A stretch of DNA of 64,000 nt from positions 320,619 through 384,618 of the forward strand of contig NMRA01000377.1 of assembly GCA_002633005.1 (NCBI GenBank). Direction: 5' to 3'. The stretch is from Phoronis australis. Its lineage: Eukaryota > Animalia > Phoronida. Made by a program: the position numbers and the translations under genes. Position 1 is the stretch's first letter. Each line of letters begins with the position of its first letter. This document shows, in pieces, positions 1 through 60,813 of this stretch. A model generated the notes under the pieces. That model made no database searches, was not told the origin of the DNA, and was given only the letters and a program-made list of their open reading frames with translations.

Positions 1-163
1 AAATAAATGACCATGGGGATTTTGTTTTGGAAACAAATTGATCTTACATAGCACACGTTTAAGTAAATTACATTACCAGAACTGGCATGCTACAAATTGA
101 CCTCTGCCAACCTATAAAACAATGTGCAAAATATTGAAATATAACATTTTGCACTTCTGTCAG

Positions 164-410
164 GTATTTCTACGCCGACAAAGAGGCTGAATGCGAACTA
201 CGTCAGACGGCTCATGGCTGGTGGCACAAGAAACTCGCCGATTACTTTGAAACAGTGACGAACGTTGATCGATTCGTTGAAGAGTACCCGTATCAGCTGT
301 CAGAGATCAATGATACGACGCGTCTGTCACGCTGTTTATGCAACTGGCATTTAGTCAACAAGCTGTACCATGAGGAGTTCAGCTCACTGCTTTTAAAATA
401 CTGGAGAAAG
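164..410 (+). CDS. TPR gene exon (HKKLADYF..EEYPYQL..YWRK helical region)
   Basis: ttctgtcag acceptor, AAG|gtgcgg donor, open frame of 82 codons. Confidence 0.85.
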
Positions 411-39100: not shown

Positions 39101-42100
39101 ATATGAAACTATAAAAGAAATCCTAGTGGAATCATGGGTTAAGGAAAATCAACAACTAACCAACTCCTCCACCCTAAGAATCAGCATTGTTGAAGTTCAA
39201 AATGGTTTTGGAGTAAACAGGTACTGTTTTGATTTCAATTCTATGCAACTCCAGTAGTGTTTGTAGAGTAAATGTGCTCGTACTGCTGTTTTGTATAACT
39301 TATGTCGCTCCAATAGTAAGGATGCAAAGTGAATGAAGCAAACATTACAAAAGATGACCTTTTAAGAGTTTAACGCTTTTAATAGCTCATAGATCAAGTG
39401 CTAATAAACATTTACTCTAAAAAGCTCAGCGGAATGTGTTCTGAAGACGTAAGAAATATGAGAAAATGCAAGATATTACCCTGCATTCCGATCAAATCAC
39501 GTAATCACTCTAGCCTTTATGGGGGTGTCTACGGAAAAATCGGGGGTCTGTTTCAGAAAAAGTGACTGAAGACTAATTCCGAATTTTATCTTCAACTCTT
39601 CACGTCTATTTCTGAATATAACTACCCATTGCAAGATGTTAAGTATCTGAGAATATTCATATGACTGCCAGATGCTGAGGTAATTTTGTAAACTATTTTC
39701 TGGCTGTGGTGCACTCATAATTAATTGACTAAACCTTCATTCAGCTATTGCTTTTCAGTGTCAAGGTAACGTACATCAGATACAATGTGGAGATTCTGAT
39801 TACTGGTATTTTGGTGACTGATATAAAGGAACCTACATCTTCAGCGATAGAGGAAATAGTCAAAACATCTAATGTTACCGTAACTATCTACACCAAAGAA
39901 GTTAAGCTCACGGAATATCACTTTGTTATTGTGCTGATTGGAGATGTCACAGAAACACGGATCCGTGAGGTCTGGGAACTACGCTACCCTCGTAAGTATC
40001 ACCAACTAGCAAACGTTCCGATTACTTGAATTTTTAACAATATATTCCAGGTAAACTGGTCGTAATACTCATACTTCGTGACCTACATTATAATTCATGC
40101 TTGTGGATTTTTTCAGGTTATATTCAGTGTAGCTGCCTTGAAATCAAGATTGTGAAAAAGACTGTTATCAGGTAAGACCCAATTTACCTAAAAACCAATC
40201 TATAGCTTACAAAAAGTATTGGATATGTGGGTATTTACATTGTTGAGCATTGTTGTTACATGTGCGTGCATGTTTGGTGACTGTTTCCTCTAAAAAATAA
40301 TCTCAAGACGATGTATAAGCCTGAGTTGAAACGAGTGCTAATGGATTTCAATGTAATCTAAAATATCTCGATGGCATTACAAAAATTCAGTCAAGTTTAT
40401 CCTTTTTCCAGACTGAACACCTATGAAGTTACATACTTTGTCCTTGAGAATAACACAGTCATCGATCCTCGTGTAATAACCCCACCGACAGCTGCAAACC
40501 AATCAACACCAAGCTCTCAGATCACAGTGACAACTCCAGAGCAAATTGGCAACTTGACAACTGCTAAGACAATGAAGTCATCAATGGGCGTCACTGCTAC
40601 TACCCAGTCCATGGAATTCTCCAAAACTACACAAAACACCAATGAAGTTGGAGTAACGACAGAAACAACGCCAAACGTTTTGAAAACTACAACTNCATCG
40701 ATCCTCGTGTAGTAACCCCACCGACAGCTGCGAACCAATCAACACCAAGCTCTCAGATCACAGTGACAACTTCAGAGCAAATTGGCAACTTGACAACTGC
40801 TAAGACAATGAAGTCATCAATTGGCGTCACTGCTACTACCCAGTCCATGAAAGTCTCCAAAAGTACACAAAACACCAATGAAGTTGGAGTAACGACAGAA
40901 ACAACGCCAAACGTTTTGAAAACTACAACTGTGCCAGCCGTGAACGTAATCACAAACAAAACTATTGTTGTTAATCACTGGATCAAACAAGATGAATATG
41001 AAACTATAAAAGAAATCCTAGTGGAATCATGGGTTAAGGAAAATCAACAACTAACCAACTCCTCTACCCTAAGAATCAGTATTCTTGAAGTTCAAAATGG
41101 TTTTGGAGTAAACAGGTACTGTTTTGATTTCAAATCTATGCAACTCCAGTAGTGTTTGTAGAGTAAATGTGTTTGTACTTCTGTTTTGTATAACTTATGT
41201 CGCTCCAATAGTAAGGATGCAAAGTGAATGAAGCAAACATTACAAAAGATGACCTTTTAAGAGTTTAACGCTTTTAATAGCTCAAAGATCAAGTGCTAAT
41301 AAACATTTACTCTAAAAAGCTAAGCGGAATGCGTTCTGAAGACGTAGGAAATGAGGGAAAATGAGAGATATTACCCTGCATTCCGATCAATTCACGTAAT
41401 CACTCTAGCCTTTATGGGGGTGTCTACGGAAAAATCGGGTGTCTGTTTCAGAAAAAGCGACTGAAGACTTTAATTCCGAATTTGATCTTCAACTCTTCAC
41501 GTCTATTTCTGAATATAACTACCCATTGCAAGATGTTAAGTATATGAGAATATTCATATGACTGCCAGATGCTGAGGTAATTTTGTAAACTATTTTCTGA
41601 CTGCGGTGCACTCATAATAATTGACTAAACCTTCATTCAGCTATTGCTTTTCAGTGTCGAGGTAACGTACATCAGATACAATGTGGAGATTCTGATAACT
41701 GGTATTTTGGTGACTGATATAAAGGAACCTACAGCGTCAACGATAGAGGAAATAGTCAAAACATCTAATGTTACCGTAACTATCTACACCAAAGAAGTTA
41801 AGCTCACGGAATATCACTTTGTTATTTTGCTGATTGGAGATGTCACAGAAACACGGATCCGTGAGGTTTGGGAACTACGCTACCCTCGTAAGTATCACCA
41901 ACTAGCAAACGTTCCGATTACTTGAATATTTAACAATATATTCCAGGTAAACTGATCGATATACTCATACTTCGTGACCTCAATTATAATTCATGCTTGT
42001 GGATTTTTTCAGGTTATATTCAGTGTAGCTGCCTTGAAATCAAGATTGTGAAAAAGACTCTTATCACGTAAGACCCAATTTACCTAAAAAACAATCTATA

Positions 42101-45100
42101 GCTTACAAAAAGTTTTGGATATGTGGGTATTTACATTGTTGAGCATTGTTGTGACATGTGCGTGGATGTTTGGTGACTGTTTCCTCTCAAAAATAACCTC
42201 AATACGATGTATAAGACTGAGTGGAAACGAGTGCTAATGGATTTCAATGTAATCTAAAATATCTCGATGGCATTACAAAAATGAAGTCAAGTTTATCCTT
42301 TTTCCAGACTGAACACCTATGAAGTGACATACTTTGTCCTTGAGAATAACACAGTCATCGATCCTCGTGTAGTAACCCCACCGACAGCTGCGAACCAATC
42401 AACACCAAGCTCTCAGATCACAGTGACAACTCCAGAGCAAATTGGCAACTTGACAACTGCTAAGACAATGAAGTCATCAATTGGCGTCACTGCTACTACC
42501 CAGTCCATGGAAGTCTCCAAAACTACACAAAACACCAATGAAGTTGGAGTAACGACAGAAACAACGCCAAACGTTTTGAAAACTACAACTGTGCCAGCCG
42601 TGAACGTAATCACAAACAAAACTATTGTTGTTAATCACTGGATCAAACAAGTTGAATATGAAACTATAAAAGAAATCCTAGTGGAATCATGGGTTAAGGA
42701 AAATCAACAACTAACCAACTCCTCTACCCTAAGAATCAGTATTCTTGAAGTTCAAAATGGTTTTGGAGTAAACAGGTACTGTTTTGATTACAATTCTATG
42801 TAACTCCAGTAGTGTTTGTAGAGTAAATGTGTTCGTACTTCTGTTTTGTATAACTTATGTCGCTCCAATAGTAAGGATGCAAATTGAATGAAGCAAACAT
42901 TACAAAAGATGACCTTTTAAGAGTTTAACGCTTTTAATAGCTCAGAGATCAAGTGCTAATAAACATTTACTCTAAAAAGCTAAGCGGAATGCGTTCTGAA
43001 GACGTAAGAAATGTGAGAAAATACAAGATATTACCCTGCATTCCGATCAATTCACGTAATCACTCCAGCCTTTATCGCGGTATCTACGGAAATATAGGGG
43101 GTCTGTTTCAGAAAATGTGACTGAAGACTTTAATTCCGAATTTTATCTTGATCTCTTCACGTCTATTTCTGAATATAACTACCCATTGCAAGATGTTAAG
43201 TATATGAGAATATTCATATGACTGTCAGTTGCTGAGGTAATTTTGTAAACTATTTTTTGATTTGTGGTGAACTCATAATTAATTGACTAAACCTTCATTC
43301 AGCTATTGCTTTTCAGTATCGAGGTAACGTACATCAGATACAATGTGGAGATTTTGATAACTGGTATTTTGGTGACTGATATAAAGGAACCTACAGCGTC
43401 AACGATAGAGGAAATAGTCAAAACATCTAATGTTTCCGTAACTATCTACACCAAAGAAGTTAAGCTCACGGAATATCACTTTGTTATTTTGCTGATTGGA
43501 GATGTCACAGAAAAACGGATCCGTGAGGTCTGGGAGCTACGCTACCCTCGTAAGTATCACCAACTAGCAAACGTTCCGATTACTTGAATATTTAACAATA
43601 TATTCCAGGTAAACTGGTCGTAATACTCATACTTCGTGACCTACATTATTATTTTTGCTTGGGGATTTTTTCAGGTTATATTCAGTGTAGCTGCCTTGAA
43701 ATCAAGATTGTGAAAAAGATTCTTATCAGGTAAGACCCAATTTACCTAAAAACCAATCTACAGCTTACAAAAAGTTTTTGATATGTGGGTATTTACATTG
43801 TTGAGCATTGTTGTTACATGCGCGTGGATGTTTGGTGACTGTTTCCTCTAAAAAATAATCTCAAGACGATGTATAAGCCTGAGTTGAAACGAGTGCTAAT
43901 GGATTTCAATGTAATCTAAAATATCTCGATGGCATTACAAAAATAAATGAAGTCAAGTTTATCTTTTTCCAGACTGAACACCTATGAAGTGACATACTTT
44001 GTCCTTGAGAATAACACAGTCATCGATCCTCGTGTAGTAACCCCACCTACAGCTGCAAACCAATCAACACCAAGCTCTCAGATCACAGTGACAACTCCAG
44101 AGCAAATTGGCAACTTGACAACTGNTTGTTTCGATCCAGGATATAAATCATTGAAAACATCGTATTTTGAATTGCTTTTCAGTGTCGAGGTTACTTATAT
44201 CCGATACAATGTGGAGATTCTGGTAACTGGTGTTTTGGTGACTGATGTAAAAGAACCTACCTTGGCGACGATAGAGCAAATACTCATTACATCTAACGTG
44301 ACCATAAAAATCTACACCAAAGAAGTTAAGCTCATGGAATATCACTTTGTTATTGTGCTGATTGGAGATGTCACAGAAACACGGATCCGTGAGGTCTGGG
44401 AAATACGCTACCCTCGTAAGTATCACCAACTACAGATGTATCAAACGTCCTGATAACTTACATTTTTATAACCCATATGTTCCAGACTGTGATTAACACT
44501 GACGATTCGTGTTCTGTCATTATACTATATGTTTATATAATTCTTTCCAGGATTTGTTGAATGTGGCTGCCTTCAAATCAAGATTGTCAAAAAGACGACT
44601 ATCAAGTAAGACTTACCTTGAGTAAAACAGAACCTAGAGCCTACAAATATTAGGGTTATGTGCGCATTTATATTGTTGAGCATTGTTGTTACATGTTTGT
44701 ACGTCTTTGGTGGATGCTTCCTCTCAGCTGTGTAACAAACTTAATTGAAGAAAAATAGTCTCAATGTGACGTAAGAACCTGGTTTGAACCGAGTCCTGAT
44801 GGAATAGAGTGAAATCTACAATATTTTTGTGACATCACAAAATGAGGTCAATTCTATTCTTTTCCAGACTGAACACCTATGAAGTGATATACTTTGTCCT
44901 AGAGAATAACACAGTCATCGATCCTCGTGTAGTAACTCCACCGGCAGCTTCGAACCAATCAACGCCAAGCTCTCAGATCACAGTGACAACTCCAGAGCAA
45001 ATTGGCAACTTGACAACTGCCCAGACAGTGAAATCGTCACTAGGCGCCACTTCTACTACCCAGTCCATGGAAGTCTCCACAACTGCACCGGCAGCTGCGA

Positions 45101-48100
45101 ACCAATCAACACCAAGCTCTCAGATTACAGTGACAACTCCAGAGCACATTGGGAACTTGACAACTGCCAAGACAATGAAATCATCACTAGGTGCTACTGC
45201 TAGCACCTCAACTTACATCGGTGACCGCACGACCATGAGCCTGAAGTCAACGATTACTCCACCCACACACGTTACCGCTGACGTCAACAGCACATCAACA
45301 ACAAGGTCAACATTGACCAACGTGCTAAGGAGCATTACCGTTACAGTAACCAACTGGATAGAAGATATCAATATAGAAATTGTGAAGACGGTGTTAGTGG
45401 ACGCTTGGATCACAGTCAACCCTGTCTTACGACAAGAACTGAGGATTCACATCGTAACAACTGAAAACAGATTAACACTATTTGGGTAAGTGGTAATGGT
45501 TTTTCTACTGGTTGTATACCTGTATTGGTTTTACATTCGTCCCAGAGAAACACAACCCTAGTGGTTGATGTAGACCTATGTCTTAAGCAGAGATTGATTG
45601 TGTTTTTATGCAATTTGTTTTGTATTTTTGCAGAAAAAAAGCTACGTTAATCACGTATGACCTAGAAGTATTGAGATTGCAGTTCAATCTACACAACCTC
45701 ACAACTCCGTCATCAACACTGATGGAGCAGACGTTCACAACTTACAACATGACCCTTTTCACGGGAACAGTCTTACGTACCGAATACCAGTACACTGTTA
45801 CATTAGTCGGAGCAGTCACAAAAACTCAAGGAATCGAAATCATTCGGCATAACTGGCAGGTTACGTATCCAGGTAATTCCATTTCAAATGTCCCTTATTA
45901 GTTTGCACTTCGCAACAAACCGTTGTGCGAAGTGAATTGATTGAAAATATGCAAGTTCAATTACTCATTGAAGAGCCAGTGTGTTCTGGGGGGATGAGTG
46001 TTTACTTCCTTTACTCAAGGCCGTGGTCTCGAGTCCCACTGGAGCACACTGATAGACCCTTGAGTGAAGTCTCTAGGTCCCCAGCTTGGGTTTAATTGCA
46101 AATTAATACAGCAAAGAAATGGTTTCAGGTGTTCATAGCAATGGACTCACTTGAGCAGCCTACGCACTTCTGACACAAGGCGCATCACACCGCCTGCAAT
46201 TAATTATTTTTACTCGTTGAATGATGATATAGCAAGAGAGCCATCGGCACTGAAATCGGCCTCGGTTGCAGTCTCATCCCGAACGCTTAATTCCGCTAAA
46301 TGAACCACAGAGGGCACTATGTGTCACACTGAGTCAGTGTACCGGAGTTGCTTAATTTGCTCGTTTATTATGTCACTTTGACGTTCTGGACCCATACAAA
46401 TAAAATTAAAATGCCAAAATTAAAAGCAATAATAACATAATTGGGCCAGATTTGCATAGCACTGTAAATTACTAAGCACTTTGAAAATTATTGCTTTGCC
46501 ATGGACCTGGCCAATCACCCTTCTGTACTTTCCGGAAGCATACAACAGGTGCAACCGTTGTCGGAACACACTGATTAATCAAAACCCACAATTTTGCAAA
46601 ATTTTAGGTGCTACATTGCCCCCGTGGATTTTTTCCGCTTTAGGAGTTGGAAAGAATCCAAGACCCCAAAAATTTTCAAAATCTGACGAGACTGAGCATA
46701 TGTGGCCTCATCTATTCATGGGTTCAAATCACGTCATGTTAGTGGCATGTACGCCATCACTAAACATACGAATACTTATCACTTCATATGTACTCATGAT
46801 ATTCACTTTGTTGCAGAATACAAAAATTGTGACTGCTTCAGAGTCGAGCTATATTCAATAACAGTCCAGTAAGTATATACAGCTGATTGTAGAACAAGGC
46901 AGTGTAGTACATGGAGCCGATTTCAAGTTGAATCTAAATTGGATTTTTAAGCTTTGTAAGGCAGTTTTGTTTATCCAAACATCCACCACTTACACAGTTA
47001 ACACACAGATGCAATTTATTGGAATACCATACTGCGAAGTTTGTGTTCTTACAGCTGAAATGAGGACATCGAATGCGTTGTTCCTCAAAATTATTTTTAT
47101 ATTTTTCAGATTTTTCATCTCATAACATGAGACTTCCTGTTTACCGATTTACTGATGCTCTTTTATGTTTTTATCTTCGTATCTTCATTTTTCCAGGGTA
47201 AAAGACACAGTTGTCATCTATTTTGTGATAGCAAACGGAACGCAACTCAGCCCGTACAACGTCACTCAGCCAACAAACTTCACAGGGATAAATGTGACAA
47301 CAACGTCTCAGCCGACATTAGTCAGTAATATCACAACGCAAGTACCCCCGGCGACTTCTTTGACAGCAACAAGTCCCTTGTCTACGGTATCAGGAATACT
47401 AACAACCGCAACAACAAGTACAGAAGCCCACACAAAAATGGTCATCACAACATCTTCAAGTTTGTTGAATGTGAGTACTGAAACTAATAATTTAACAAGG
47501 ACAACGCCTGGAGATATTTCCTCGACAGTGCGGGAATCGTTCACGGCAGCAAGTCAGACGACAGGGCCAACTCCACTATCGGCGTCAAGCACATCGCAGG
47601 TAATAAATGTTACCTCTCAAGGAACAACGAGAATCACCACTACACTAGCAAGTACCACGTCGAAAGTATTGAGTACTGCAGCGCCACCTATCGACAGAAT
47701 CTTCAATCAAACTGTGATGATAGTTGACTGGGTGGAGTATCATAGTTTGGAATTAATTGAGAAGGCCATTCGGCTGGCTTGGATTCAGACAAACGCACTG
47801 AACGTGTCGGAGAATGTTACCGTGCAGGTCAAACTTGTTGAGAACGCCATTGGAAACAAAGGGTTAGTATAAGCCATGCACATGCCTCCCCTATCTGTAA
47901 TGTCGTTTTGCTCCTGCAGCTAATTTCAACATCTTCAGGACGTAAAAGTGCACGCACATGTATAACTATAGTTTGCAATGAAAATCATTATGACCACTTG
48001 TATTTCTTCCACGTTTGTAAAGCATGACCCTACATTCGGCTACTCTCTGAGTATTCCGACGCCCTATTGGTTGGCCCAGGAATACTTGGTTCGTACATGC

Positions 48101-51100
48101 AATTCGACGTGAGTGGGTCAGATATTGCCCGTTTTACGCCACTGGCTCTTTCAGATTTTGCCTAATTTATCAACTCATTGACCCGTAGCCGGTTTTACAT
48201 TTAGTGCCTTTATCACATGGTTTATGTTTGTGATATTTTAGCGTTTCCTTAATTTTTGAAAATTTTCAAATTGACAGCAATTCATTAACGCTATGGTTAC
48301 ATAGCATTTTGTTCCCAATTAACAGTCGATTATTATTCTTTTGCTTTTTCAGATTGGAAGTTGTAATTATCAAGTACAACGTACATTTGGGCCTAAATCT
48401 TCACTCACTCAACATCTCCATCCCATCTCTTACCGACCTCCAGACGTCGCTTACATCAACGTCATCAACACTTAAGCTTTATATCGGTGACGAACCAGTA
48501 TTGGACCGACAGCTTTTTGAACTTAATATTTTGGGGCTCGTGAACCTGGAAAGCGTGAAACATCAATTGGAAATTGAAATAGCTAATTCGTGGAAAACAG
48601 TGTATGAAGGTACGTTGATTAAAAAAGGCATTCATTCTTATGCACTATACGGCAAGAGTTAAGGTTGAAAATCATCATAGATCTAAGTTGGTATATTTTT
48701 CCCAATTGACTCTTTTAAACATGTAAGTGTACTGTCATATAGTGCCACCAGTTTTCAAAAACGTTACATTAATAGTTCGCTTCCATTCAGATTTGAAGAC
48801 GTGTAGCTGCATCGAAGTCGTTGTGACGAAGGTTGATACACTATACGATGTTATGAGGTAGGTGCTCGGATTGATAGAGCTGTGAAGAAGCTTTGTACAT
48901 TTNTTTATCACATGGTTTATGTTTGTGATATTTTAGCGTTTCCTTAATTTTTGAAAATTTTCAAATTGACAGCAATTCATTAACGCTATGGTTACATAGC
49001 ATTTTGTTCCCAATTAACAGTCGATTATTATTCTTTTGCTTTTTCAGATTGGAAGTTGTAATTATCAAGTACAACGTACATTTGGGCCTAAATCTTCACT
49101 CACTCAACATCTCCATCCCATCTCTTACCGACCTCCAGACGTCGCTTACATCAACGTCATCAACACTTAAGCTTTATATCGGTGACGAACCAGTATTGGA
49201 CCGACAGCTTTTTGAACTTAATATTTTGGGGCTCGTGAACCTGGAAAGCGTGAAACATCAATTGGAAATTGAAATAGCTAATTCGTGGAAAACAGTGTAT
49301 GAAGGTACGTTGATTAAAAAAGGCATTCATTCTTATGCACTATACGGCAAGAGTTAAGGTTGAAAATCATCATAGATCTAAGTTGGTATATTTTTCCCAA
49401 TTGACTCTTTTAAACATGTAAGTGTACTGTCATATAGTGCCACCAGTTTTCAAAAACGTTACATTAATAGTTCGCTTCCATTCAGATTTGAAGACGTGTA
49501 GCTGCATCGAAGTCGTTGTGACGAAGGTTGATACACTATACGATGTTATGAGGTAGGTGCTCGGATTGAGAGAGCTGTGAAGAAGCTTTGTACATTTGTT
49601 GTGGTTATCTCGCGTTGCAAGTAAGCTTGTACACTTCCTTATCCGCACTTTACTTTAATAGGGGAAACTATACTGAAAGCAGAGTCACTTAAATCCGGGA
49701 GTCACATTTTAAAGGCTATGGCTAACTTTATTAAACACGACGTAAGGAAATTGCGTGGTTTCTCGCCACCTGACCTCACATCTATATTGGGATCTGACAA
49801 AAGTCTTAAAGAATGCCCCTCTAAGGTATGACTGTCATCCGATTTCAGAAAAGACATATCGCAGGTATCATATCTGGTTCGCATTAATCGCACGGTCGTT
49901 GAGCCTGAACAAAGATTGGCACCACCAGTTAATAAGACCAAACTGACAGGATACGAGGTCATCAGCGTTATACCCAGTCAGATACGAAACTACAAGGACT
50001 CCTACAGCCTCTTCCTGACTGGCTTGGTCAGTGGACAGATTGTCGACTCTGTGGTGTCTTCACTGAATTCAACATGGGAAACAGTTCGTAAGGGTAAGCC
50101 ATTATTAAAGATTTTCAAGAATAAAGCGATAGTATGCGTTACCTGTCTTGTTATTGGTGGCTTTCAAATTTTCTTGACGACAGTCGTCGGAAATGTCGTG
50201 TTCATAAATGACATCAATAGGGCGACTCCGAAGATCTGAGCACAAAAAATTACCAATCGTACTCGATACCTTTCGTTTTCGGTTTTGGTGAATTTAAACT
50301 CAAGTCTGTACAAGTCGCATTTAAGAGCCGGTTTGTGTTGAACATGCGTTGTTCTCTCCAAAAGAATTTCAATTGAAAATTGTCAGATTAGCTATGTAAA
50401 GCACTTTGATATTTGCACTGCCGTCTGTTTATGCTCATCTTGCAAAGAAACAGCAACGTGTATACATGGCTTCCTGCAATACTGCCCAGTAACGTCTTAT
50501 GAAGTGCATCTGCGTAATATATTCTTCCACATATCACGCTGAGGGTACATCTTTTTCTTACGCTCTAAGTGTAACTCACTGGTTCGAGAGCTGTGTTCGT
50601 GACAATCACAGCTTACTCGAGAATCCACTAGAAAACTATTTGATCACATTTCGTAAACACACTTAAAACCAGGCAAAGGATTTTAAACCGAGTCTGGAGT
50701 GACGTTCGGTTATCCGAAGTCCCTGGAATATTGTCGCTTTCATGTCGAATAACTGAAGATTTTTTTTTTTCAGATTACGAGAGCTGCAAATGCTTTAACT
50801 TGGAAGTTGCCCAAGTTGGCAAGTTTGTTAATTCCAAAGGGTAAGTGCGGTTCGTACACTGAACAATGTATTAAAAAGAGCAGATACTACAAGTCGTTAT
50901 TGTCAAATGCGTACTAGATACAAGAATGTCTGCTAGGCACGGAGATTTTTAAATTTTACAACACTTGCAAAGGAATGATCATGTTTTAACCAAAACATGA
51001 GCACGAACTTTAAAATTAGAACGTAAGTAAACAAAGACATATTGATCTGACGTTTTGGCTAATTCGCTATAAACCATTTTCAAGCAAAGATTCACACTAT

Positions 51101-54100
51101 TGACTAATGTGAGCTTTTGTCTTGAGAATGATTTGTAGTGAATAAAGTTTGTAAGGGAATGGACGGAGAAAAGTGCTAGAGTAACAGAGGAGAGCTCTGC
51201 TCATTGACGGGAAAATGGCAATGCTAATACATGTTTCACCAATGGTTAAAGGCACTGGAAGTTCAAAAGGCGAGATTGGGCATAACGGTTTTGAGTTAGC
51301 CTTTAGGAATGGCACGATTTTGTGTTTTTGTTTTTTCAGGAAAGATGTGTCGCGAATCCGATACTTTGTGGTAGTAAACCAAACTGTTGTGTCGTCAAAG
51401 CGAGAGGTTCCTGGTGCGTCCTTCCAGCAACTAATCGAGGAGAAAATAACCGATCTTCAACTACGTGACGTTTATGGAGAAAAGTTGTCAGTATTGGGCA
51501 AGACTGAAATCTCTCAACTTCAAAGCATCAGCGATCTTAAGCAAGTCTTTGTTAAAGGACGCGTGGCGGATCGAAACATCAAGGCACTTAAAGCCGCCAT
51601 ATTGAACGCTTGGAACAAAGTATTTGGTAGGTCAGGTCTTTTGACACACACTTTAAGTAACAATGATGAAGTATTAATCTTGCTTTACCTGAAATTATTT
51701 TGAAACTTAAATTTTTAGTGAAATCTACAAAGTCGTAGGCATAGCGGATATTATGGGACAGTCCAGTTTTGGTGATCTCCAAATAACATCAAAACTATTG
51801 ACTGGTTGATTAATTCGAAGAAGACTACTGTTCAATCATCTTTTTTAGTAATTGCACCACGTTGTTTTTTCCAGGTCTTGTTGATGTTAACGTAATGAAG
51901 ACAAAGACATTTGTAGATAATCGTCGGTGAGTAGAGTCAACGTTTTCTGGGCCATTTATTTCAGCATTGAAACTGCTTTTAAAATGAGGGATGTTTCTAA
52001 TTGCACGTTTTGAGATTTTACTTCTTTAGCTTGTCATGTCTTTTTAGCGGTGTCATCACCTCTTTGGAGTATTCAGTGAAAAATGCTACCACCAACGCAT
52101 CGATCGTAGAGAACGAGAACACAACAACAGACGTGCAGCGGCAACTGGAAATCGCAATCTCCTCCGTGAATCATACCAGGGGAGATAAGTACCAAGTGAC
52201 GACTCTGGATCCTTCAACGTTAGGGTCACTTCAACCGTACAACCTACACTACTCACTCTTTATTGTGGGCAAGATCTCTCGTAGCGACCTCTCTTATTAC
52301 AAAGAATCTTTGAGATCCGCTTGGTTACTGGAATATCCAGGTAACTTTTAAAGCGCCTACTGTTACTTTTTGATGTTGTTATGTTCTAAACTGATTAGAT
52401 TAATCATGCAGTGATCTTTCTGAGGTTCTGTTAAGTCCGCAGAAAATTAACGCCGGATCTCATGATTCACAAAAAAAAACAAATATTTTAAATAGATTTC
52501 CCAGTAGCGCCTTTACCATACTGTGTAAACCAACTTTGTGCGACTGTGAGCCAATGAAATTCCAGGATCGCGCATAACTGGATGTTATAACATTACGTAC
52601 TGCATTGAGTTCGAACTCTTATCACGGAAAATTTAATAGCGATTGAAGAAAACAAACAAATGGAAAAAATAGTAAGAGCGATTAAAAAGTCAGACACCAA
52701 TACTTAACTAACATCATCACCATCACCATCACCATCACCATCACCATCATCATCACCATCACCATCATCATCATCATCGGGCATCTATTGCAGTCTTCCA
52801 GTCGTTTTGTTGAAAGGTTAAATCAATGCTAACAACCAATGTTGTACTTCTTTAGATTTGACAAACTGTGGCTGCAACTTCACAATGGAATTTGGTCCAC
52901 TGGAACAGTACGTTGGCGAGTTCAACTCTGAAGTTACTAAGATCACTTACTGGGTGAAACGAGACAACGTCTTTGAATCCACGTTTACTCTCGCTGAACC
53001 GGCGCCCAATGAGTTGGAGAACGTCGTGAAGTCGTTTGGCGGCGCGTATGGTGTATACACCGGTACAGCTCCATCACCTATGACCGTGCAGTACTCGGTG
53101 GATGTCCTCGGAACCCTGCAATATTCAAACATTGTCACCATCATACAGGGCCTGAATCAGTCTTGGTCAAATTATTGTAAGTCAACAGGAATTCTTCCTT
53201 CGCTGATTCATAGGCGTTTCAATGAACTGGGAAGTGACAAAGTAAATTAGATTGCTGGAGGCTGTTCCAGTGCATAAAAGTAATGTAGTCGACGACTGAT
53301 TGTCAAAACACTAGCAAGTACTCTGCGGAGGTTTCAAAGGAAATAGCATATACGTACTGGAGTCTATGTCTTACATTCGAAGAAAATCTTACCCCAGCTA
53401 TTGGTTGTCGTATTTCCTTGAGTTGTAAATATCACGTTCTTTTTTCAGTGAAGACTGAATGCAACGACTGTGCAGTACAAGTAAAAATTGGAAACAGCCG
53501 CAGCCTTCTTACATTGTCAAGGTAAAGACAACCTTTTACCTTGGATAGTCCTCTGCTAATGGCTAAATGTATCCTAAGCAGTTGCCCCACAGCAGGCTAT
53601 CACTGGTCTTAGGAATTGTCTTTCATGTTTTGTTGCTATGATGCGTGCTGATAGTTCTACTGTACACTGTGTTGCTATGATGCGTGCTGATAGTTTTACT
53701 GTACACTGTGTTGCTATGATGCGTGCTGATAGTTCTACTGTACACTGTGTTGCTATGATGCGTGCTGATAGTTCTACTGTACACTGTGTTGCTATGATGC
53801 GTGCTGATAGTTCTACTGTACACTTTGTGGGTCAAGATTGCCTTGGTTGCTTATCCTGATGATGACTTATGAGACATCAAAACGTGTTGAAGTGGAAACA
53901 TCTCGTTGTTTTATTAATAGTCACATACTTGTCTTCGGTGAGACCAGTTAACAATACCGGTTTCTAACAAACTCGGAGAAGAACAAATGACGAAAGTATT
54001 CCCACATGCGTTTTACTTGCCGATGTAGGCAGTGCTGGCTAAACATACTCCGTTCTGAAGTTACAAAAACTGTTCCGCATTTATTCACATTTTGGACATC

Positions 54101-57100
54101 GGGAAATGAAAAATTGACCTGCCTAATTGTTTATGATAATTTTCTGTGTTTCAGGCAAGCGAGCACACGTCTTGTATATTCCGTGCTTGTCAACGGAGAA
54201 GCCATTGATGTTAAACCTCCAACTAATGACCAAATCAAAAATGCTGTAGAGAGCGTTGGATTCAATGTCTCGACTGCGGTCAAATTGGACATCCAAGAAC
54301 TTACTTTGGACGGAAACCTCGTGTTAGAGCAGGTTGACAAAGTTGCAACAAGCATTGAAACAACATGGAGCAGCACCGTAAAATCATCTTCCGTCGCCGT
54401 AAACGTGGTTTCAACTGAAACATTCGTTAAAGAAAACAAAAGGTAATTTATTTTTTTGGTAAAACTGTGATATTTTAGAACCTCGCCAAAAGATACCATT
54501 TTTAACATACCTCTTCATTTGCTTTTTCGTTTCGTATTCAATTTCCAGCAAGCACAAGTGGCTTTGCGACAATCAGTATTCTTGTGTACGTTATGCCCTA
54601 GGAGAAAAATGTTCATCCATTTAAATTCTTTTTCGTTCTTTGTTCTAGCCCCGCAACGAAACTTAAGTTTGCTGTAACGGTGAACGGTACAAGTCCCCAG
54701 GACTTGACCACCGTTGTTGCTCCGCCTGAATCATTAATAACTAAGAACATACAGAATGCTACTGATATCAGCCCGTGCGGCTGCGCGGCCAGAAAAGTTC
54801 ACAGCCTCGTTGTAAAGAGCAGTTCTGTAGTTACCAGCAGAGCAGTAATCGCAGAAGGTATCTCTCAGGCATGGAGAACTGCAAACTCCCCAGGTGAATT
54901 TTTTTTTTCAGTTTCAGCCCATATGTTTTCACATATTTTAGTGGCTCAGGAAACACTTTCATTAGTTGACAAGCGTTTAAAATATTTGATTGAGGAGTTG
55001 AAATAACTTAATCAAAGTAGCATCTACTTAAGTTCATTTCTTGTGGCTATCCTTCGCACGAAAACAAGTGCGAGTATAGATTTCACTTTAAAGGTGTAAC
55101 GATCAATTGGTAGTTCATTCTTTAGCTAACGGGCTCGCATGGTCCTTTTTTCATTGTAGATTTCAATCTTACCGGCTTTGTCGTCGATGTCGTCAGTGTG
55201 GACAACGGCCTAATTGACACGGCAAGGTAAATGGAATTTAAATAGCTGTAGAAATTACAGCCTACTTTTTGTCGCTGAACTGCTCTGTATAGAAGACACA
55301 TTTAGTTTTAAAAACCTCTATGCGGTGATTCCAAAGTGAAAGAGGACTGTTATATACGTGTTGCCTGATTTTATTTTTCTTGCTTTTTTAGCAATGCCCA
55401 GACACAACAGCGGGTCAGGCGAAGTATTCGAGGAAGACGTGCTGACGAACCTGCGTGAGTGTTTGGCTATGTTAACATATATCAAAATGTAGCCGCTTCT
55501 ATTATAAGTACACAGTATTGCTGAATTTGCAAGGCTTGAACTCCAAGTGTACATGAGATGCAGGCCTAACTAATACAGGATTCCGTCCGTGTTGAAAAGA
55601 AAAATTATCGCAAAAAGTTGTTGGGTAATTACGCCGAAAATCGTCTGGCTTCGTTGAAGTTATGTCGTAATACACAAAAACAGACGAACAATAACGCTCA
55701 ACTTATATTTGGAAATTAAGCAGAAAAGTTTGCTTCGAAATTTTGTGTCTGCAACATGGATTGAATTATAATAATCTTTGATCTGGGCCATCATAGGTCA
55801 GTTTTCAAACTTTACTTTCAAGCATTATACAGTTTTGACTGAACCCATCATAACGTTTACTGGCGTGATTTGCTTCACTATTTATCATTATTCAGGGTAA
55901 CGAAGATCGATTATATCGCTGGCATTAACAACATGGACTCGAGTTTACTCATGATACAGCAGCCGTCGACAGTGGAGCTATCAAAGCAACTTGGAACGGA
56001 AGTGTGCACTGACTGCGAGGCCAGCCGGGTTTATATGTTCCATGCCAACTCGGCACTGAAAGCTATGGATAACAAGGACATCCAAGCTGCTCTAAAGACC
56101 GCTTGGGAAACCGTTAACTCAGGTAAGGATACTTGTGCCAGCTGACCAGCAGAATAATTTGAATTCAGTTATTGCTAGGAATGTCCTCATGCTCTGCAAT
56201 AAATGGGATAACTAGCCCTTTTCAGAAATCTGCAAGGATTTTATCATTTCGAGTTATGCACTTTGGTACACTGTGAGTTACAAATGAATAAGGGAAATGA
56301 CATCTGTTGGAATCTGACATTGGTTTGGATAAACTTGCACTAGTTGAAACGGACAACGAAGATTGATTATTGTAAATCTATTGCCAAAATTGGTTCTGGG
56401 GAAGGACGACTTCAATCATTACATTTTTCTATCGCCGCTTTACATTTTCAGGTGTTGCTAACTTGACTGTTGGTGCTACGGTGTCGTCCAAGGAGAATCT
56501 TTACGATAAGAAAGGGTGAGTTTGCTTAGAACGTTCACGTTTTGTTTCTAACCTACGCACTTGAAATCTTATACCTCCCGCAGTACGTTAACAGTTTCGT
56601 GACAGCAATAAATTCACAATGTTTCTATTCGAAGTGTTTCCCAATTTTTCGATGCTGTCATACACCATCAGGGAGTCTGTCATCCATCACAGCAATCAAC
56701 TTTTGCTTTAGACATCTTACTCTTATAAAATTGGTCTCAATGTTTCCTTAGTCAAATTTTAGATGGTTTAAGGACTTCAAAAGACGTGATGCATCTACCT
56801 CGTTATTGTTTTAAACACGAATCTTTAAATTGGCTTGACACAGCATGTCATTTTAAGCACAGACCTTGATCTTAACGATTAACAACCCTAAATGACTTCT
56901 CATCTGAAGAACAAACAGGTAACTAGTAGTTTTAATCAAACGTTCACTCCTTGTACGGAATGCTGATTTACATACACTTTAAATGCAATATCATTACAGT
57001 CAAGTACCAATGCCGAATACGTTAAATCAAAATTGGAAAACCCATTACCCTACTCTCTGTGTTTCGTGCTCTTGATTACATGGCCGTTTCATTTGAAAGG

Positions 57101-59565
57101 TCAACTTTCCTTTGTCTTTTCAAGAACATCTCTATCCACGTACATGTATCGTTTTCAAAGAAGTACCGTCCACATGTATACGCTACAGCAACCGAAAACG
57201 TCACTTTTTCTGTACGCTCTGAACACAAATGAGGGAACACCAAAGTTTTTGAGATGTTGCGTTTTCGCCCGCCAACAGGCCCCCTAAAACGATGACGGTG
57301 TCAGCTTTTCTAAAAGTTATTTTTTGGGTTGTGATACGTATGGACACACGTCCTATTCCCAAAACGTTTACTTTTTGTTAAAAACTTCATCTCGAGATTT
57401 GGTTTTGCTTGTCAAATCCAATGGATACGTGCAGGTTAGACGTCGAAAGCTGTATCCGTAAAGAAAAATGATGGTGTCAGTGGACAGGGGGTCAATTACG
57501 TTGCAAACTTAAAATCTAAGAGCCAATAATTTGAACATGTATTGGTTAAGTTATCACGAAATAAATGTATCATTTGGCAAACTTAATTAGCTAGGCTATT
57601 ATCTTTTCTTGCAGCAATGATATTATACGAGTGCAGTACACAATTCGACCGACAGCTGGCGGTGTGGCGCAGTCAGAAGATAGGTTAATAGCACCCTCTG
57701 ATGACGAAATAGAGAAAAGTTTGAAGTTAATCGACCCAAATGTCGAACTCTTCCAAGGAGATGTTTTCAAGACTAAAAATAAAGACAAATTCATACCATC
57801 AATAACTAACGTATGTAATTATTCAAAAACAATAATTTTAATCATTGTACTGTTAAGAATTTTTTGAAGCGGCTGTAAACTTGTCTTCCATCTGCTGTCT
57901 GTAATCGAATTTGTCTTTTTCTCGTATAGAACTCGGTCTCATAATACTCCTGATCGTGAGTAGAATCCCATTTTCATGATGAACCCCAGTCAAAGGCAAT
58001 GGGTTTCTTGTGCCATTTTTGAAGCGTTTTCTTGGGTCGCTATCTTTTCGATGTTCTTGTTGGTAAACGAAATGGAATCCAGTCAGGGTAAAGAGTATTA
58101 TGACGTAGTTTTAGTCAGCTTAACAGGGTCAAATGTAACTTCAAGCTCCTAAACTAGTGCGTAAAGACTCTTTTTACTTCAGGGAATTACGAAAGGCATA
58201 ACATGTATATCCTTTAAACGTCACAGATTTACACATACATGTATTCCGTAAGGAAAGTATACGTTCGTAATTTAAGCTCTTACATAATGGTCAATAGTTA
58301 ATATACTCTCATATCCTACTACAGCTATGTAGTTATGTGACTGAGTTTTACCTGGCTTAACAACGATGCTTCAGAAGCCCGATTGACATTGTTGTACTTT
58401 GAGTTCCCGATTGAAAGACGTGTTTACCGACCTCCTTAAGTAAAGCACTTGCTCAGTATTGATGTAGTGAAAACAATTAATAAAAATTCAAACTTTGTCT
58501 TCCAGGAGCCATGGTTCTGGCCCGTTGTGATCGCTGTCGGCGGACTGCTTCTCATTCTTATTGTCGTGCTTGTAGTGAATGCATACAGACGATACGGCAG
58601 GTAAGTTTACTTCGCGAGCGGAAAGTTAGTGTGATGAAGTGCTTCGCTTGCATCGCCTGATGATCTCTTGATTAAGTTGCGCCATCTGGCTTATCTCGCG
58701 GCAGCCTTGCTCCACTCAACGTGGTGCAAATTTTGTCAAGTCAAAGCGACTAACACACGTCAAGCTGAATGAAATCAAATTATAGGATCCAAATTGCGAT
58801 CCTGAACGGTCAATGGATTTCATTTGTTTCACTGAATTATGTTTTAAAACTAGGAACGGTCATTTAGTCACATTATTAAAAATCGAAACGAAGGGATCCA
58901 CCCCGAAAAGGAACAAAAACAATCATGATTTTTGAAGAAATTGATGTAGGTGGCTTTAAGCCTAGTTTAACACGCGTTTGGCAAGAACACTCAAATCTTC
59001 GCGAGATAACGCCACGTGTTACGTACATTAAGTAAACCACGTCATAGCACTAACTTTCACTCGCGAGTGTCTTGTGTTACGAAACTGGCATTGTGGTTGC
59101 ATTATTACAGTTAAATTTATTTCGAATAAATTGAAAATCTTGATATCCTTAAGCTCTTGAAAATATTTCCTGCAGGGTTACGTAATGGGTATACATCTTC
59201 TCTGCTGTTCTTTTGCACAAGTTGACAATTATCTTCTGCATAAGTTGACAATTTTTAAAAACACAGTATTTCACATTTCTGGGATTTTCAAAATTGAATC
59301 GTTTTTTTGTCGAGGGACCACAGAAGATGTGCCACGCCTCTAAATCGTGAAAATAGTATGTAAGGGATTGTTTACATGCCACTAACCGTTTTTGTTGCGA
59401 ATTGAATGCTGCCGTGTGCTTTTAATTCTTCTGTTTTTACTTTACAGACAAAAATCTGCTCTGTCTGTCAGTCAAACAGATTTCAGAGAAGAAATCGATT
59501 TCACGTATGCAAAGGCAAGGGCATTCGAGGCTTCTAATCCAATGTACACCTCTTTAGCTGTTTAG
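12054..59565 (+). CDS. Giant Delta/Serrate-like type I membrane protein: signal peptide - MNNL(C2) - DSL - EGF - ~29 SEA-like repeats with Thr-rich mucin spacers - TM - NPxY tail (~54 exons, ~4,000 aa)
   Basis: Apart from the two gap-interrupted exons, all exons have GT-AG boundaries with continuous phase: 12054-12101, 16847-17010, 18022-18130, 23285-23454, 23965-24158, 25036-25339, 26041-26282, 27883-27934, 29067-29429, 29697-29926, 31458-31509, 31628-32218, 33197-33435, 34043-34094, 34702-35058, 35300-35520, 35964-36018, 36199-36993, 38100-38332, 38458-38512, 38753-39220, 39759-39991, 40117-40171, 40412-41115(gap), 41655-41887, 42013-42067, 42308-42775, 43317-43549, 43675-43729, 43973-44124(gap), 44183-44415, 44551-44605, 44868-45485, 45634-45872, 46817-46868, 47197-47862, 48353-48609, 48791-48857 (redundant copies 49048-49304, 49486-49552), 49849-50093, 50774-50840, 51340-51626, 51875-51926, 52048-52340, 52856-53176, 53449-53521, 54155-54442, 54649-54893, 55160-55226, 55392-55454, 55896-56122, 56452-56515, 57615-57810, 58506-58600, 59448-59565. 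Confidence 0.88.
13683..16031. mobile_element. Non-autonomous DNA transposon-like element (hAT-like CAG..CTG termini) in intron 1
   Basis: Left CAGGCCCGTAGCCAG and right CTGGCTACAGGGCTG (reverse complement CAGCCCTGTAGCCAG, 13/15 match); both ends carry GGACCTTTT and ggggg..ttcga/tcgaaccccc motifs; no clear TSD, no transposase ORF. Confidence 0.55.
16081..16405. repeat. Low-complexity (AAT/AAC)n then (ATT)n degenerate microsatellite
   Basis: Runs of ataacaacaat followed by attattatt/actattatt. Confidence 0.75.
16847..17010 (+). CDS. MNNL/C2 domain exon (Notch-ligand N-terminus, part 1)
   Basis: KGKLLVSFRNFNNPKHIAFDQDCCDGVLLGSGTCTGTCDPAFVLCM matches the Delta/Jagged G..F.N..CC.G..C..C..F..C pattern; not in the ORF track. 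Confidence 0.85.
18022..18130 (+). CDS. MNNL/C2 domain exon, part 2 (SSACTGAG..NFTF..NVLIDFEEW)
   Basis: gtttcag acceptor, gtaagt donor, phase 2 to 0; matches the C..G..N.F..N..i.F..W pattern of Notch ligands. Confidence 0.8.
18156..18797. mobile_element. MITE-like element (~640 bp) with imperfect TIRs and inverted subterminal repeats; partial second copy at ~20561-21110
   Basis: Left ctatggaaatccggaacggaaaatactccagtacaca vs right reverse complement ctatggaaagccaacgcggaaaaatccaggacaca; ggaaaattt repeats on the left and aaattttctcctgg on the right; ATAA on both flanks. Confidence 0.65.
18249..22950. repeat. Gap-flanking ~2.3-kb duplication (18249-20547 vs 20561-22950), probably two haplotypes
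   Basis: Near-identical copies on both sides of the N at 20548, differing by SNPs and indels (extra segments near 21831-21883 and 22147-22180 in copy 2). Confidence 0.85.
23187..23295 (+). repeat. 53-bp tandem duplication covering the splice acceptor of exon 23285
   Basis: acaaaatggacagccgtgggtcagtatatag(a/g)tatttctttacagggtg(a/g)tac occurs twice. Confidence 0.85.
23285..23454 (+). CDS. MNNL/C2 domain exon, part 3 (GGTQLLITAEDYD..LIDRF)
   Basis: tctttacag acceptor, gtaagt donor; matches the G..Lii.A.D..LI.R motif. Confidence 0.85.
23965..24158 (+). CDS. DSL domain exon
   Basis: CDKHYYTADCSVLCVPQDDCYGHYTCNQTTGRKMCNKGWTGEHC has the DSL cysteine spacing plus the YY, DD, GHYTC and GW.G..C hallmarks. 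Confidence 0.93.
25036..27934 (+). CDS. EGF domain + repeat module 1 (exons 25036-25339, 26041-26282, 27883-27934)
   Basis: C..FGCLNDGQCVPYLNSFYCCCKPGWKGPLC EGF-like repeat, then a Thr-rich linker, two beta/alpha repeats and the EYKECSCL micro-exon. Confidence 0.88.
29067..31509 (+). CDS. Repeat module 2 (exons 29067-29429, 29697-29926, 31458-31509)
   Basis: Phases 2-2, 2-1, 1-2; YYVVVNET / LENAW / SWENAY / EYKNCSCL. Confidence 0.85.
30927..31233. repeat. Degenerate minisatellite with 49/39-bp units
   Basis: Repeating aaaata-cc-gaggtgttccggatg core with or without the ataatttgaggccacg tail; about 7 units. Confidence 0.75.
31628..34094 (+). CDS. Repeat module 3 (exons 31628-32218, 33197-33435, 34043-34094)
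   Basis: Long Thr-rich spacer; ILVAW / EAWLTTFP / QYKNCGCL. Confidence 0.85.
34702..36018 (+). CDS. Repeat module 4 (exons 34702-35058, 35300-35520, 35964-36018)
   Basis: YFVLVNGT / IMTAW / LWEETY / ELKGCGCV. Confidence 0.85.
36199..38512 (+). CDS. Repeat module 5 (exons 36199-36993, 38100-38332, 38458-38512)
   Basis: Longest S/T spacer (~180 aa); LLESW / VWELRYP / RYIQCSCL. Confidence 0.85.
37471..37545 (+). pseudogene. Truncated degenerate copy of a module domain exon (pseudo-exon)
   Basis: aattgcttctcagtgtcgac..tggaaattctggtaactggtgttttggtgactg aligns to the acceptor and 5' part of exon 38100 and then breaks off. Confidence 0.65.
37590..44124 (+). repeat. Recent tandem array of ~1.66-kb units, each with three exons and their introns
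   Basis: Exon starts 38100/39759 (1659 bp apart) and 41655/43317 (1662 bp apart); introns near-identical between copies; gaps at 40695 and 44125 may hide further copies. Confidence 0.9.
38753..44605 (+). CDS. Repeat modules 6-9 (near-identical copies; two exons interrupted by assembly gaps)
   Basis: YFVLENNTVIDPR..ILVESW / YNVEIL..VWELRYP / YIQCSCLEIKIV repeated; frames intact except at the N positions. Confidence 0.8.
44868..46868 (+). CDS. Repeat module 10 (exons 44868-45485, 45634-45872, 46817-46868)
   Basis: Mucin exon with an internal 147-bp duplication; LVDAW / HNWQVTYP / EYKNCDCF. Confidence 0.85.
45974..46095 (+). mobile_element. Possible decayed tRNA-derived SINE fragment
   Basis: ggtctcgagtccc resembles a Pol III B box and is followed by cccttgag as in many SINE bodies; heavily diverged. 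Confidence 0.3.
47197..48857 (+). CDS. Repeat module 11 (exons 47197-47862, 48353-48609, 48791-48857)
   Basis: YFVIANGT / IRLAW / NSWKTVY / DLKTCSCI. Confidence 0.85.
48209..49597. repeat. Gap-flanking ~695-bp duplication (48209-48902 vs 48904-49597), likely assembly artefact
   Basis: Essentially identical copies on both sides of the N at 48903, duplicating two exons. Confidence 0.8.
49849..57810 (+). CDS. Membrane-proximal block of ~7 divergent SEA-like repeats without mucin spacers (14 exons)
   Basis: Each unit keeps the strand / helix ending in W (NSTW, LNAW, RSAW, NQSW, ETTW, SQAW, KTAW) / strand / Y-x-V strand / P pattern; phases continuous. Confidence 0.8.
52712..52778. repeat. (CATCAC/CAT)n microsatellite, intronic
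   Basis: catcatcaccatcaccatcacc...catcatcatc. Confidence 0.9.
53631..53825. repeat. 39-bp minisatellite, 5 copies, intronic
   Basis: tgttgctatgatgcgtgctgatagttctactgtacactg x5, near-perfect; explains the repetitive ORFs 53623-53859. Confidence 0.95.
55392..55454 (+). CDS. 63-nt symmetric micro-exon encoding (S)NAQTQQRVRRSIRGRRADEP(A), two furin consensus sites
   Basis: Long polypyrimidine tract + tttttag acceptor, GC|gtgagt donor, phase 2-2, open in the required frame. Confidence 0.7.
58506..58600 (+). CDS. Transmembrane exon EPWFWPVVIAVGGLLLILIVVLVVNAYRRYGR
   Basis: Hydrophobic helix followed by basic stop-transfer residues; tcttccag acceptor, CAG|gtaagt donor. Confidence 0.9.
59448..59565 (+). 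CDS. Terminal exon, cytoplasmic tail QKSALSVSQTDFREEIDFTYAKARAFEASNPMYTSLAV*
   Basis: tttactttacag acceptor, phase 2 continues the TM exon; NPxY motif; TAG at 59563-59565. Confidence 0.85.
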
Positions 59566-60813
59566 TAGTGATTTTAGACAAGTATGAAATATATGTATAT
59601 GCTCAAATTTATTAAAGATACTCCTCCGTCGTTTTCATCAATTTTAAACACATAATGAGTCTCATCAATACTAAGATATAACTGAGTTCGAACTATACAT
59701 GTACCCTGCGATAAATTGCGGTCTTGTACAATTAGTTATAAGTATGAATTATTTAGACGTCTTGAACAGTGAAGTTTAATTTTCTACGATTCAATCTATG
59801 GCTGCCTCTCTGTTGGTGTACCACCCGAAATTCTAATAGTGTACGTTTTATATTGAATGTTGTATATTTTGAGATGTGCCAAAGCTCGTGTCGGGAAGTG
59901 TTTATCTGTAGCGGTTAAGTCTCTTTAATTTGTGATGTGCAGTATGTTTGTAAACAGCGCAAGATAGTCCCTCAGGATCAGCACGCTTTCGCCATTTCAT
60001 TTGAAAATTCCCGCGAGATTACCTTGTTATCAGATGAATGTTTGAAACTGAATGAACTGAGATGTTTACAATTCTCTTTTGTAGTATTTGGTTTTGAACA
60101 GGTAAAATGAATTGTACACTTCATCTCAGTCTTAGTGTTTGTCTTTGTCTTGTTGACTGTTTACATTGTGGACCTGTGACTTGAAGTCGTTTTTGCTGTT
60201 TTTGACCGCACCTCCGATCTGTATTGCGTTATGTGTACAGTGCGTATGTTACTTAAAATATTTTATGCTCGATATGCATAACTTTTGTAAAAATTTAAAA
60301 CCTGACTTACATGTTATGTCGACTTTGAGATTTCTTCGCCCGCAATCTAATCTCAGAACTCGGAACTATCTTGTTTTTGAATTGTTCTTAGTAACCTTTG
60401 GAATTAAGTGTATGCATAATCCAAATTTGTACTTGATGACCCTGCCTGAATTCGAGTCATGATTTTAAAGACGCTAAAGTCAACACGTTCAAATTCAAAT
60501 GAATCCAATTAGAAGCTGTGACTTCTCCCTATTAGTGAACATCTCTCTTGATTTCAAGCTTTTACACATTTATTTCTTTGAAAGCAGGAATTGACTTGAT
60601 ATTATAATTGTGCGATTTAAATGATTTATATTTTTGTATGAATATTTGTGTACAAATGATTAGAATAGACGCTTCTTTCCGCGTCTAGATTTTTACGAAT
60701 TTGACTGGGGTATACACCGATACAGCGATTATCCAACTAATTTGTTTAAGACATGTAGCTTTTATTTATTAAAAGTTTCACCTGAAATGTTTAATATTGG
60801 CAACTTATGTACT

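Follow-up and report, generated by a model that had tools for sequence, protein, structure and literature searches.

A 63-nt micro-exon at positions 55392-55454 of the window, i.e. of the 64,000-nt stretch of Phoronis australis DNA analysed here (GCA_002633005.1, contig NMRA01000377.1, positions 320,619-384,618, forward strand), is real and is spliced into mRNA. In our preferred reading, to which we give a probability of about 0.58, it would by default provide a furin cut that makes a giant, DSL-tipped membrane protein a two-chain molecule with a built-in breaking point, the ectodomain being released under shear or pull, by analogy with known cleaved SEA-like proteins.

Expression and coding content of the micro-exon

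The first-pass annotation had proposed a phase 2-2 exon carrying two R-X-R-R motifs; its coordinates proved exact, with AG before and GT after the 63 nt, phase 2 on entry and on exit, RNA joints on both sides and the encoded peptide NAQTQQRVRRSIRGRRADEP. The RNA evidence comes from four public runs (X1-X4, one species label) over positions 51300-60000, with 18-19% of each raw run sampled and a joint listed when at least 3 reads in one run or one contig supported it. The reads diverge by a few percent from the window and therefore derive from other individuals or a close relative. The runs of one study are unequal in this interval, their listed joints amounting to 42 reads in X4, 17 in X2 and 2 in X3.

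The upstream joint 55226>55392 was found in one X1 contig, 2 reads of X2, none of X3 and 2 of X4, and the downstream joint 55454>55896 in the same X1 contig, 4 reads of X2, none of X3 and 1 of X4. The contig, of depth 33, spans both joints. Inclusion is thus seen in three of the four runs, X3 being nearly silent for this gene; every joint read at the micro-exon gives a plus-strand transcript, and ten further GT-AG joints are listed from 51626 to the last exon. Summed over X2 and X4 (rebuilt from bins), depth is 5.7 in the upstream exon, 6.5 in the micro-exon and 6.2 in the following 60 nt. Splice signals, described earlier as strong, are so on the acceptor side and less so on the donor side: scored with a leave-one-out matrix over the 12 RNA-supported sites, the acceptor reaches 11.8 bits, the best of 12, and the donor 5.8 bits, the third weakest.

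R-X-K/R-R is the furin/PC consensus. It is also given for GPR126 (PMC6954182; here and below, statements cited to the literature draw on the accessible parts of the articles). In the draft model RVRR and RGRR, both in the micro-exon, are the only such motifs of the 3,683-aa ectodomain, in the whole of which composition predicts 0.26; the chance of two in one chosen 21-aa stretch is about 8e-7, or about 2e-4 after a rough correction for some 200 stretches. Their P1 arginines lie 176 and 170 aa before the start of the transmembrane segment and the end of the exon 166 aa before it, in agreement with the distance of about 165 aa claimed at first.

Table 1. Predicted features of the host gene in the window, in order of position
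Feature	Position	Strand	Evidence
Five predicted exons: signal-peptide-like start, C2/MNNL, DSL (23965-24158)	16604..24158	+	Pfam MNNL 6.6e-5, DSL 1.4e-14; frame-consistent GT-AG chain; no RNA joints
One EGF, then about 25 further repeats, including nine Ser/Thr-rich stretches	25036..54442	+	Pfam EGF 1.6e-4; draft model; RNA joints 36018>36199 and from 51626 on
Exon ending in CxC; beta1 and alpha1 of the penultimate, putatively SEA-like repeat	54649..54893	+	RNA joints; alignment to modelled homologs
67-nt exon; beta2 of the penultimate repeat, donor feeding the micro-exon	55160..55226	+	RNA joints; alignment
Micro-exon; RVRR and RGRR furin-type loop	55392..55454	+	RNA joints both sides in X1, X2, X4; frame, motifs
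Exon with beta3, alpha2 and beta4 of the penultimate repeat, CxxC, and beta1-alpha1 of the last repeat (predicted start of membrane-side fragment)	55896..56122	+	RNA joints; hhalign 96% to P0019 189-265
Exons 56452-56515 and 57615-57810; remainder of the last repeat, predicted to stay on the membrane stub	56452..57810	+	RNA joints; alignment
Transmembrane exon	58506..58600	+	RNA joints; hydrophobic segment
Last coding exon; short tail with NPxY, stop	59448..59565	+	RNA joint, 3' UTR coverage; translation; FxNPxY in 5 furin-site homologs

Architecture of the host gene

The host gene was modelled as a hand-built chain of 52 exons (16604-59565) from which two gap-broken exons and one duplicated exon were omitted. 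Every intron in it is GT-AG, and the frame stays open for 3,751 aa; the draft protein comprises a signal-peptide-like start (judged by eye), a C2/MNNL domain, a DSL domain, one EGF, about 27 repeats with Thr-rich linkers, a transmembrane segment starting at residue 3684, and a short tail (tail region 46 aa) bearing an NPxY motif. Counting the two gap-broken exons gives 29 repeats; the repeat count is unsure, as assembly gaps fall within near-identical copies. The nine Ser/Thr-rich stretches total 937 aa. RNA coverage of the gene drops steeply toward its 5' end, and in 16400-36300 there is nearly none, 36018>36199 being the sole joint; the proposed link between the DSL domain and the micro-exon therefore rests on the frame-consistent gene model and on the homologs.

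Several other properties of the gene were noted. Lone CxC/CxxC motifs (14 in the draft) start beta2 of every second repeat between 27883 and 53521, all but one in a short phase 1-2 exon, and could form local disulfides or mucin-like cross-links between chains. Between 29067 and 47862 the Thr-rich exons place the stalk directly after beta3, by eye seemingly instead of alpha2-beta4, and every second repeat there may be an incomplete SEA-like unit. The segment 37579-45088 holds four to five recent tandem copies of a two-repeat unit, 78-96% identical including introns: either the stalk is still expanding by genomic duplication or this part is in some measure mis-assembled. Six single N occur in the window (1574, 3870, 20548, 40695, 44125 and 48903), at least four of them at joints of near-identical direct duplications (3337-4490, 18247-22950, 38801-42590 and 48209-49600), which are likely to be assembly overlaps; owing to them, two Thr-rich exons are interrupted and the exon at 48353 is present twice. 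An intronic repeat (19700-20400 and 22100-22900), whose open reading frames had no Pfam match, is covered by very abundant opposite-strand RNA, with hundreds of reads; these are 90-95% alike and therefore come from an expressed copy elsewhere. Further, a minisatellite (39-bp unit, 5.1 copies, 98% matches) occupies intronic positions 53631-53828, a CATCAC array lies at 52715-52778, and positions 138-6180 (plus strand) hold exons from an adjacent gene, which encodes NPHP3-type and TPR_12 repeats followed by a C-terminus rich in Asp; its Atlas look-alikes are NACHT/WD and TANC1-like proteins.

Predicted SEA-like fold of the repeats and position of the motifs

The fold of the repeats was approached through AlphaFold2 models of two homologs, P0019 (Haliotis cracherodii) and P0021 (Mya), of mean pLDDT 80, in which each complete repeat is ferredoxin-like (beta-alpha-beta-beta-alpha-beta). 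In a full structural alignment against 48,161 chains, PCDH15 MAD12 came first (Z 8.3, rmsd 3.5, 95 aligned), followed by the nuclear pore chain 7tbj_P1, CELSR1, CDH23, the dystrophin glycoprotein complex, TMPRSS6, SorCS2, GPR126 and the MUC16 SEA domain. The best Z values of two such searches were 8.3 and 7.0, with GPR126 at 5.9 and 5.7. The top 9 and top 13 rows are proteins with SEA or SEA-like domains. Such proteins are markedly enriched among the top rows, at middling Z values; the matched parts lie more in the neighbouring repeats than in the penultimate one, and a Z of 6-8 possibly marks a common arrangement. Pfam SEA (PF01390) matched none of 15 window pieces or 25 database proteins, the GSVVV autoproteolysis motif is absent from the penultimate hairpin, the repeat profile matched no solved structure by sequence, and Foldseek with a three-domain model returned generic ferredoxin-like matches and no SEA domain. 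In the Atlas, a SEA cluster appeared at 0.80 only and is a lead. On the strength of the models, the repeats of P0019 and P0021 are classed as SEA-like domains, and by alignment to them the penultimate repeat of the window protein, which is spread over four exons, is predicted to be SEA-like as well.

The insert had been placed between two strands of the penultimate repeat, a position that holds by alignment to the modelled homologs: exon 55896-56122 aligns with residues 189-265 of P0019, from beta3 of the penultimate repeat onward (E 4e-9). A loop location, as expected for the insert, would fit the structure predictions, in which the homologs' own furin motifs fall in disordered beta2-beta3 loops with pLDDT<50 (residues 170-178 of P0019 and 117-125 of P0021). 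The predicted loop is exposed in both models, that of the window lying about 8 residues further along the hairpin.

Homologs and distribution of the furin-type site

A profile of 13 repeat exons searched against 1.84 billion proteins gave 33 matches at E<=0.001, the named ones coming from molluscs (Haliotis, Patella, Gigantopelta, Aplysia, Lymnaea, Physella, Bulinus, Biomphalaria, Potamilus, Ruditapes, Mya, Dreissena and Mizuhopecten) and from the annelid Owenia. Four (P0009, P0012, P0015 and P0023) were set aside as apparently unrelated repeat proteins, P0018 and P0030 are doubtful as relatives, and nine are short fragments without a transmembrane segment. Seven proteins of 2,750-3,634 aa combine DSL and repeats, and the giant DSL-repeat architecture predicted here is therefore, to judge from sequence, real. 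The search found no close relative of the window protein on record; its identity to the homologs amounts to about 20% over the repeats and 32-42% over the N-terminus. Single exons gave no match in word-based protein searches, and one such search with alignment A2, confined to proteins of 2,362-5,000 aa, found two Biomphalaria proteins. A metagenome scan left one locus of 225 candidates, rejected as a 21-aa chance match in a seemingly bacterial gene. Database names for the family are 'uncharacterized', 'hypothetical', 'Delta-like' and 'jagged-1b'. Our literature search, with most subscription papers outside its scope, returned no description of a giant DSL SEA-repeat family; in their accessible parts, the surveys PMC8166818, PMC5356439 and PMC12166595 discard or set aside DSL proteins of unusual architecture, and family members may stand in their supplementary figures.

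The last 300 ectodomain residues were aligned with those of 20 homologs (17 profile matches, two cluster mates and P0047). Part of the family shares such a site: ten of the 20 have a polybasic site in the same penultimate repeat, 172-176 aa before the transmembrane segment (seven R-X-K/R-R, two RHTR and one RRIRKR; two of the ten proteins are cluster mates of others), and three of the seven with a full R-X-K/R-R are full-length with a DSL domain. The other ten, mainly a second gastropod paralog together with Owenia and Mizuhopecten, are without it, and the site is therefore not needed family-wide.

The mollusc loop bulges from beta2 before the last short strand of the hairpin, whereas that of the window follows this strand, about 8 residues later and at the intron position; the difference suggests that the furin site was gained independently in the two. 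The micro-exon was probably gained by insertion into the phase-2 intron present at almost every hairpin. A tree of the last 300 ectodomain residues leaves the window protein unplaced (end branch 1.68), and a clade uniting it with the site-bearing group is neither supported nor rejected (p-AU 0.08). Its N-terminus scores better against the site-less paralog (173 and 159 bits versus 108, 91 and 85); its NPxY tail resembles that of five site-bearing proteins (FxNPxY).

Three observations concern other database entries. The short ORFs P0020, P0022, P0027, P0028, P0031 and P0033 run from near beta3 to just past the alpha1 tryptophan, like the window exons, hinting at an exon layout conserved in the family. 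P0032 is continuous through beta2-beta3, with no break. The site-less paralog has two annotated isoforms in Biomphalaria glabrata, P0025 (X1) and P0042 (X2); a difference of 73 aa between them at the transmembrane region (residues 2679-2751) points to a possible secreted form made by splicing.

Proposed cleavage and alternative explanations

In the mechanism that we favour, furin or a related convertase would cut after RVRR and/or RGRR in the Golgi, and the halves would stay together through their shared sheet, with beta1-alpha1-beta2 on a piece of about 3,500 aa and beta3-alpha2-beta4 on a membrane piece of about 240 aa. Shear or a pull on the tip would then part them and free the ectodomain. 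The cleaved heterodimer of the first-pass annotation is retained as probable and non-covalent, with the furin-type loop in the beta2-beta3 hairpin as at Notch S1 and with the sites in ten of 20 homologs adding strength. One whole repeat would remain on the stub, and release alone would therefore not bare a juxtamembrane site of the Notch type; a Notch-like downstream cleavage is not implied.

The exon was further proposed as a candidate splice-controlled switch, with some tissues or stages skipping it to give an uncleavable tether and others including it to give a releasable form. This proposal, so far unsupported, is in our view doubtful. The exon is present in each of the nine listed joint reads and in the sole contig, which crosses both inclusion joints, and its depth matches that of its flanks; the skipping joint 55226>55896 is unlisted in all four runs (depth 2-6 reads, threshold 3 reads or a contig), although at this threshold as many as 2 skip reads in a run would escape listing. 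At the downstream acceptor none of five reads skips, a result still compatible with up to 45% skipping. The junction counts thus establish both inclusion joints and, being thin, agree with partial skipping too. In a toy Poisson model, X2 favours full inclusion about 20-fold over 50%, whereas X4 alone favours 25-50% inclusion about tenfold over full, which is compatible with partial skipping; with the runs multiplied, the model is flat from 75% to 100% inclusion. The inclusion joints have 2 and 1 reads in X4 against 2-8 at seven neighbouring joints, but the model took seven of the ten other joints, and the three left out had 0, 1 and 1 reads in X4, so that it overstates the shortfall. Nor is the X4 dip exon-specific, coverage being 2.1 in the micro-exon and 2.3 in the first 60 nt after it.

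Some features would suit a switch: the micro-exon contains only the loop, its donor is modest, and a direct 55226-55896 splice, noted earlier to be in frame, leads without interruption to the stop and would leave a hairpin resembling the ones in the remaining repeats and in homologs that have no site. The 2-2 symmetry was rejected as evidence for a switch because the repeat region has 27 phase-2 introns, nearly every beta2-beta3 hairpin having one: any exon gained in such an intron preserves the frame only when it is 2-2, and its symmetry is to be expected. Ten other exons of the gene are symmetric as well.

A second alternative, which we hold to be unlikely, accepts the cut and sees in it maturation instead of a force-sensitive fuse, with the halves either bridged by cysteines or parting spontaneously, so that shedding would need no pull. 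Cysteine pairs flank the penultimate repeat (3437/3439 and 3556/3559) and could staple the halves together. In the ferredoxin-like SEA-like fold, beta1 and beta4 are adjacent. The window protein has a CxC ahead of beta1 and a CxxC behind beta4 of the domain with the cut site, an arrangement that Potamilus, Patella and Haliotis share. The proteins of the bivalves Ruditapes, Dreissena and Mya, however, possess the site without a CxC upstream, and CxC occurs repeatedly on its own both in the window protein and in paralogs that lack the site, so that the motif looks self-contained. As for spontaneous parting, a double cut and a long loop could loosen the sheet, and in a cell assay SEA domains without a structured neighbour were shed at a high basal rate (PMC6586460); the cleaved SEA domain of GPR126, by contrast, resists separation (PMC6954182).

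A more far-reaching version of the switch would have the giant DSL SEA-repeat mucin family acquire its furin fuse on at least two occasions, both in the penultimate repeat: as a beta2 bulge in molluscs and as a hairpin-tip micro-exon here, with the micro-exon a regulated cassette choosing between a Notch-like breaking point and an unbreakable tether; taken as a whole, this appears quite improbable to us. That the loop is a tolerated basic insertion and stays uncut is very improbable: half of the homologs are without such a loop and cleavage is predicted by analogy, but two full motifs share a 21-aa stretch while the rest of the 3,683 aa has none, several mollusc lineages have a site of this type in the corresponding repeat, and the loop is exposed in the homolog models.

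The DSL tip and Notch binding

A reading of the released DSL ectodomain as a Notch signal is weakened by the domain itself. At the Notch-binding residues of Jagged1 (F199, R201, R203, D205 and F207; PMC3415683), the window DSL has L, V, Q, D and Y, i.e. one identical and one conservative residue out of five; R203 and F207 are absent from all 14 DSL-type motifs found in seven homologs. Lacking this Notch-binding face and followed by only one EGF, the predicted released piece is unlikely to act as a normal Notch signal. A shedding coat or an adhesion tether with a fuse would fit better than a signalling ligand. An extra Cys at the position of Jagged1 F206 (DSL exon 23965-24158), common to 12 of the 14 homolog motifs, is by this count a family signature.

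The protein shares with canonical Delta/Jagged the order signal peptide, MNNL, DSL, EGF and transmembrane segment, and departs from it in having one EGF where these have nine or more, with some 3,400 aa of repeats and Thr-rich stalk in addition. Canonical Delta is defined by Gazave et al. 2017 (accessible parts) by a signal peptide, MNNL, DSL, at least nine EGF, a transmembrane segment and an ICD; with one EGF in the draft, the window protein falls outside this definition and fits only their catch-all 'DSL-like' class, which was excluded from that analysis.

Comparison with known cleaved proteins

In MUC1, Notch2 and human GPR126 the cut falls in the beta2-beta3 loop, after which the halves remain associated until force parts them (PMC6954182, PMC10556640). 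A close parallel is S1 of the SEA-like Notch HD domain, a juxtamembrane fold whose beta2-beta3 loop receives a furin-type cut that gives a non-covalent heterodimer (PMC6954182, PMC3415683), the cut in the window protein being predicted. Notch is a receptor, whereas the site described here belongs to a molecule with a DSL domain and lies in the last but one of about 27 repeats, with one intact repeat above the membrane, no LNR cap and, in place of a signalling NICD, the short tail region. In GPR126/ADGRG6, a furin site likewise occupies the beta2-beta3 loop of the SEA domain in a lineage-dependent manner (mammals and birds versus zebrafish), and the two halves remain joined. A 23-aa insert that is alternatively spliced in this protein belongs, however, to the linker preceding the SEA domain, and cleavage takes place in either isoform, whereas the micro-exon would be the furin loop itself.

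KIAA1549, MUC1 and MUC16 are, like the window protein, of type I with a Ser/Thr-rich stalk and SEA-like domains, and KIAA1549 is furin-processed in a membrane-proximal SEA-like domain below its mucin-like stalk (PMC13570299). The mucin domains differ in undergoing autoproteolysis at GSVVV, KIAA1549 in having its site in the last domain, and both in being without a C2-DSL-EGF tip. Exon-controlled shedding is known from exon 6 of KIT ligand/SCF (SCF248 versus SCF220; PMC13755836), where, too, a small membrane-near exon carries the cleavage site; skipping of the micro-exon would similarly leave a tethered form. Both SCF isoforms are documented, whereas inclusion alone is seen for the window gene, and the site described here would lie inside a folded domain, so that a cut need not release anything.

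Hairpin cleavage of SEA-like domains into heterodimers separable by force is thus already known from Notch, mucins and adhesion GPCRs. What is new is its putative carrier, a protein of about 3,700 aa with a C2-DSL tip on a long stalk of SEA-like repeats and mucin-like stretches. It may be a case of an exon gained to create a protease site, and skipping, if found, would make it a splice switch over a mechanical fuse. The paralogs with and without the site, together with the single-exon site of the window, offer natural pairs in which the effect of a cleaved SEA fuse can be tested.
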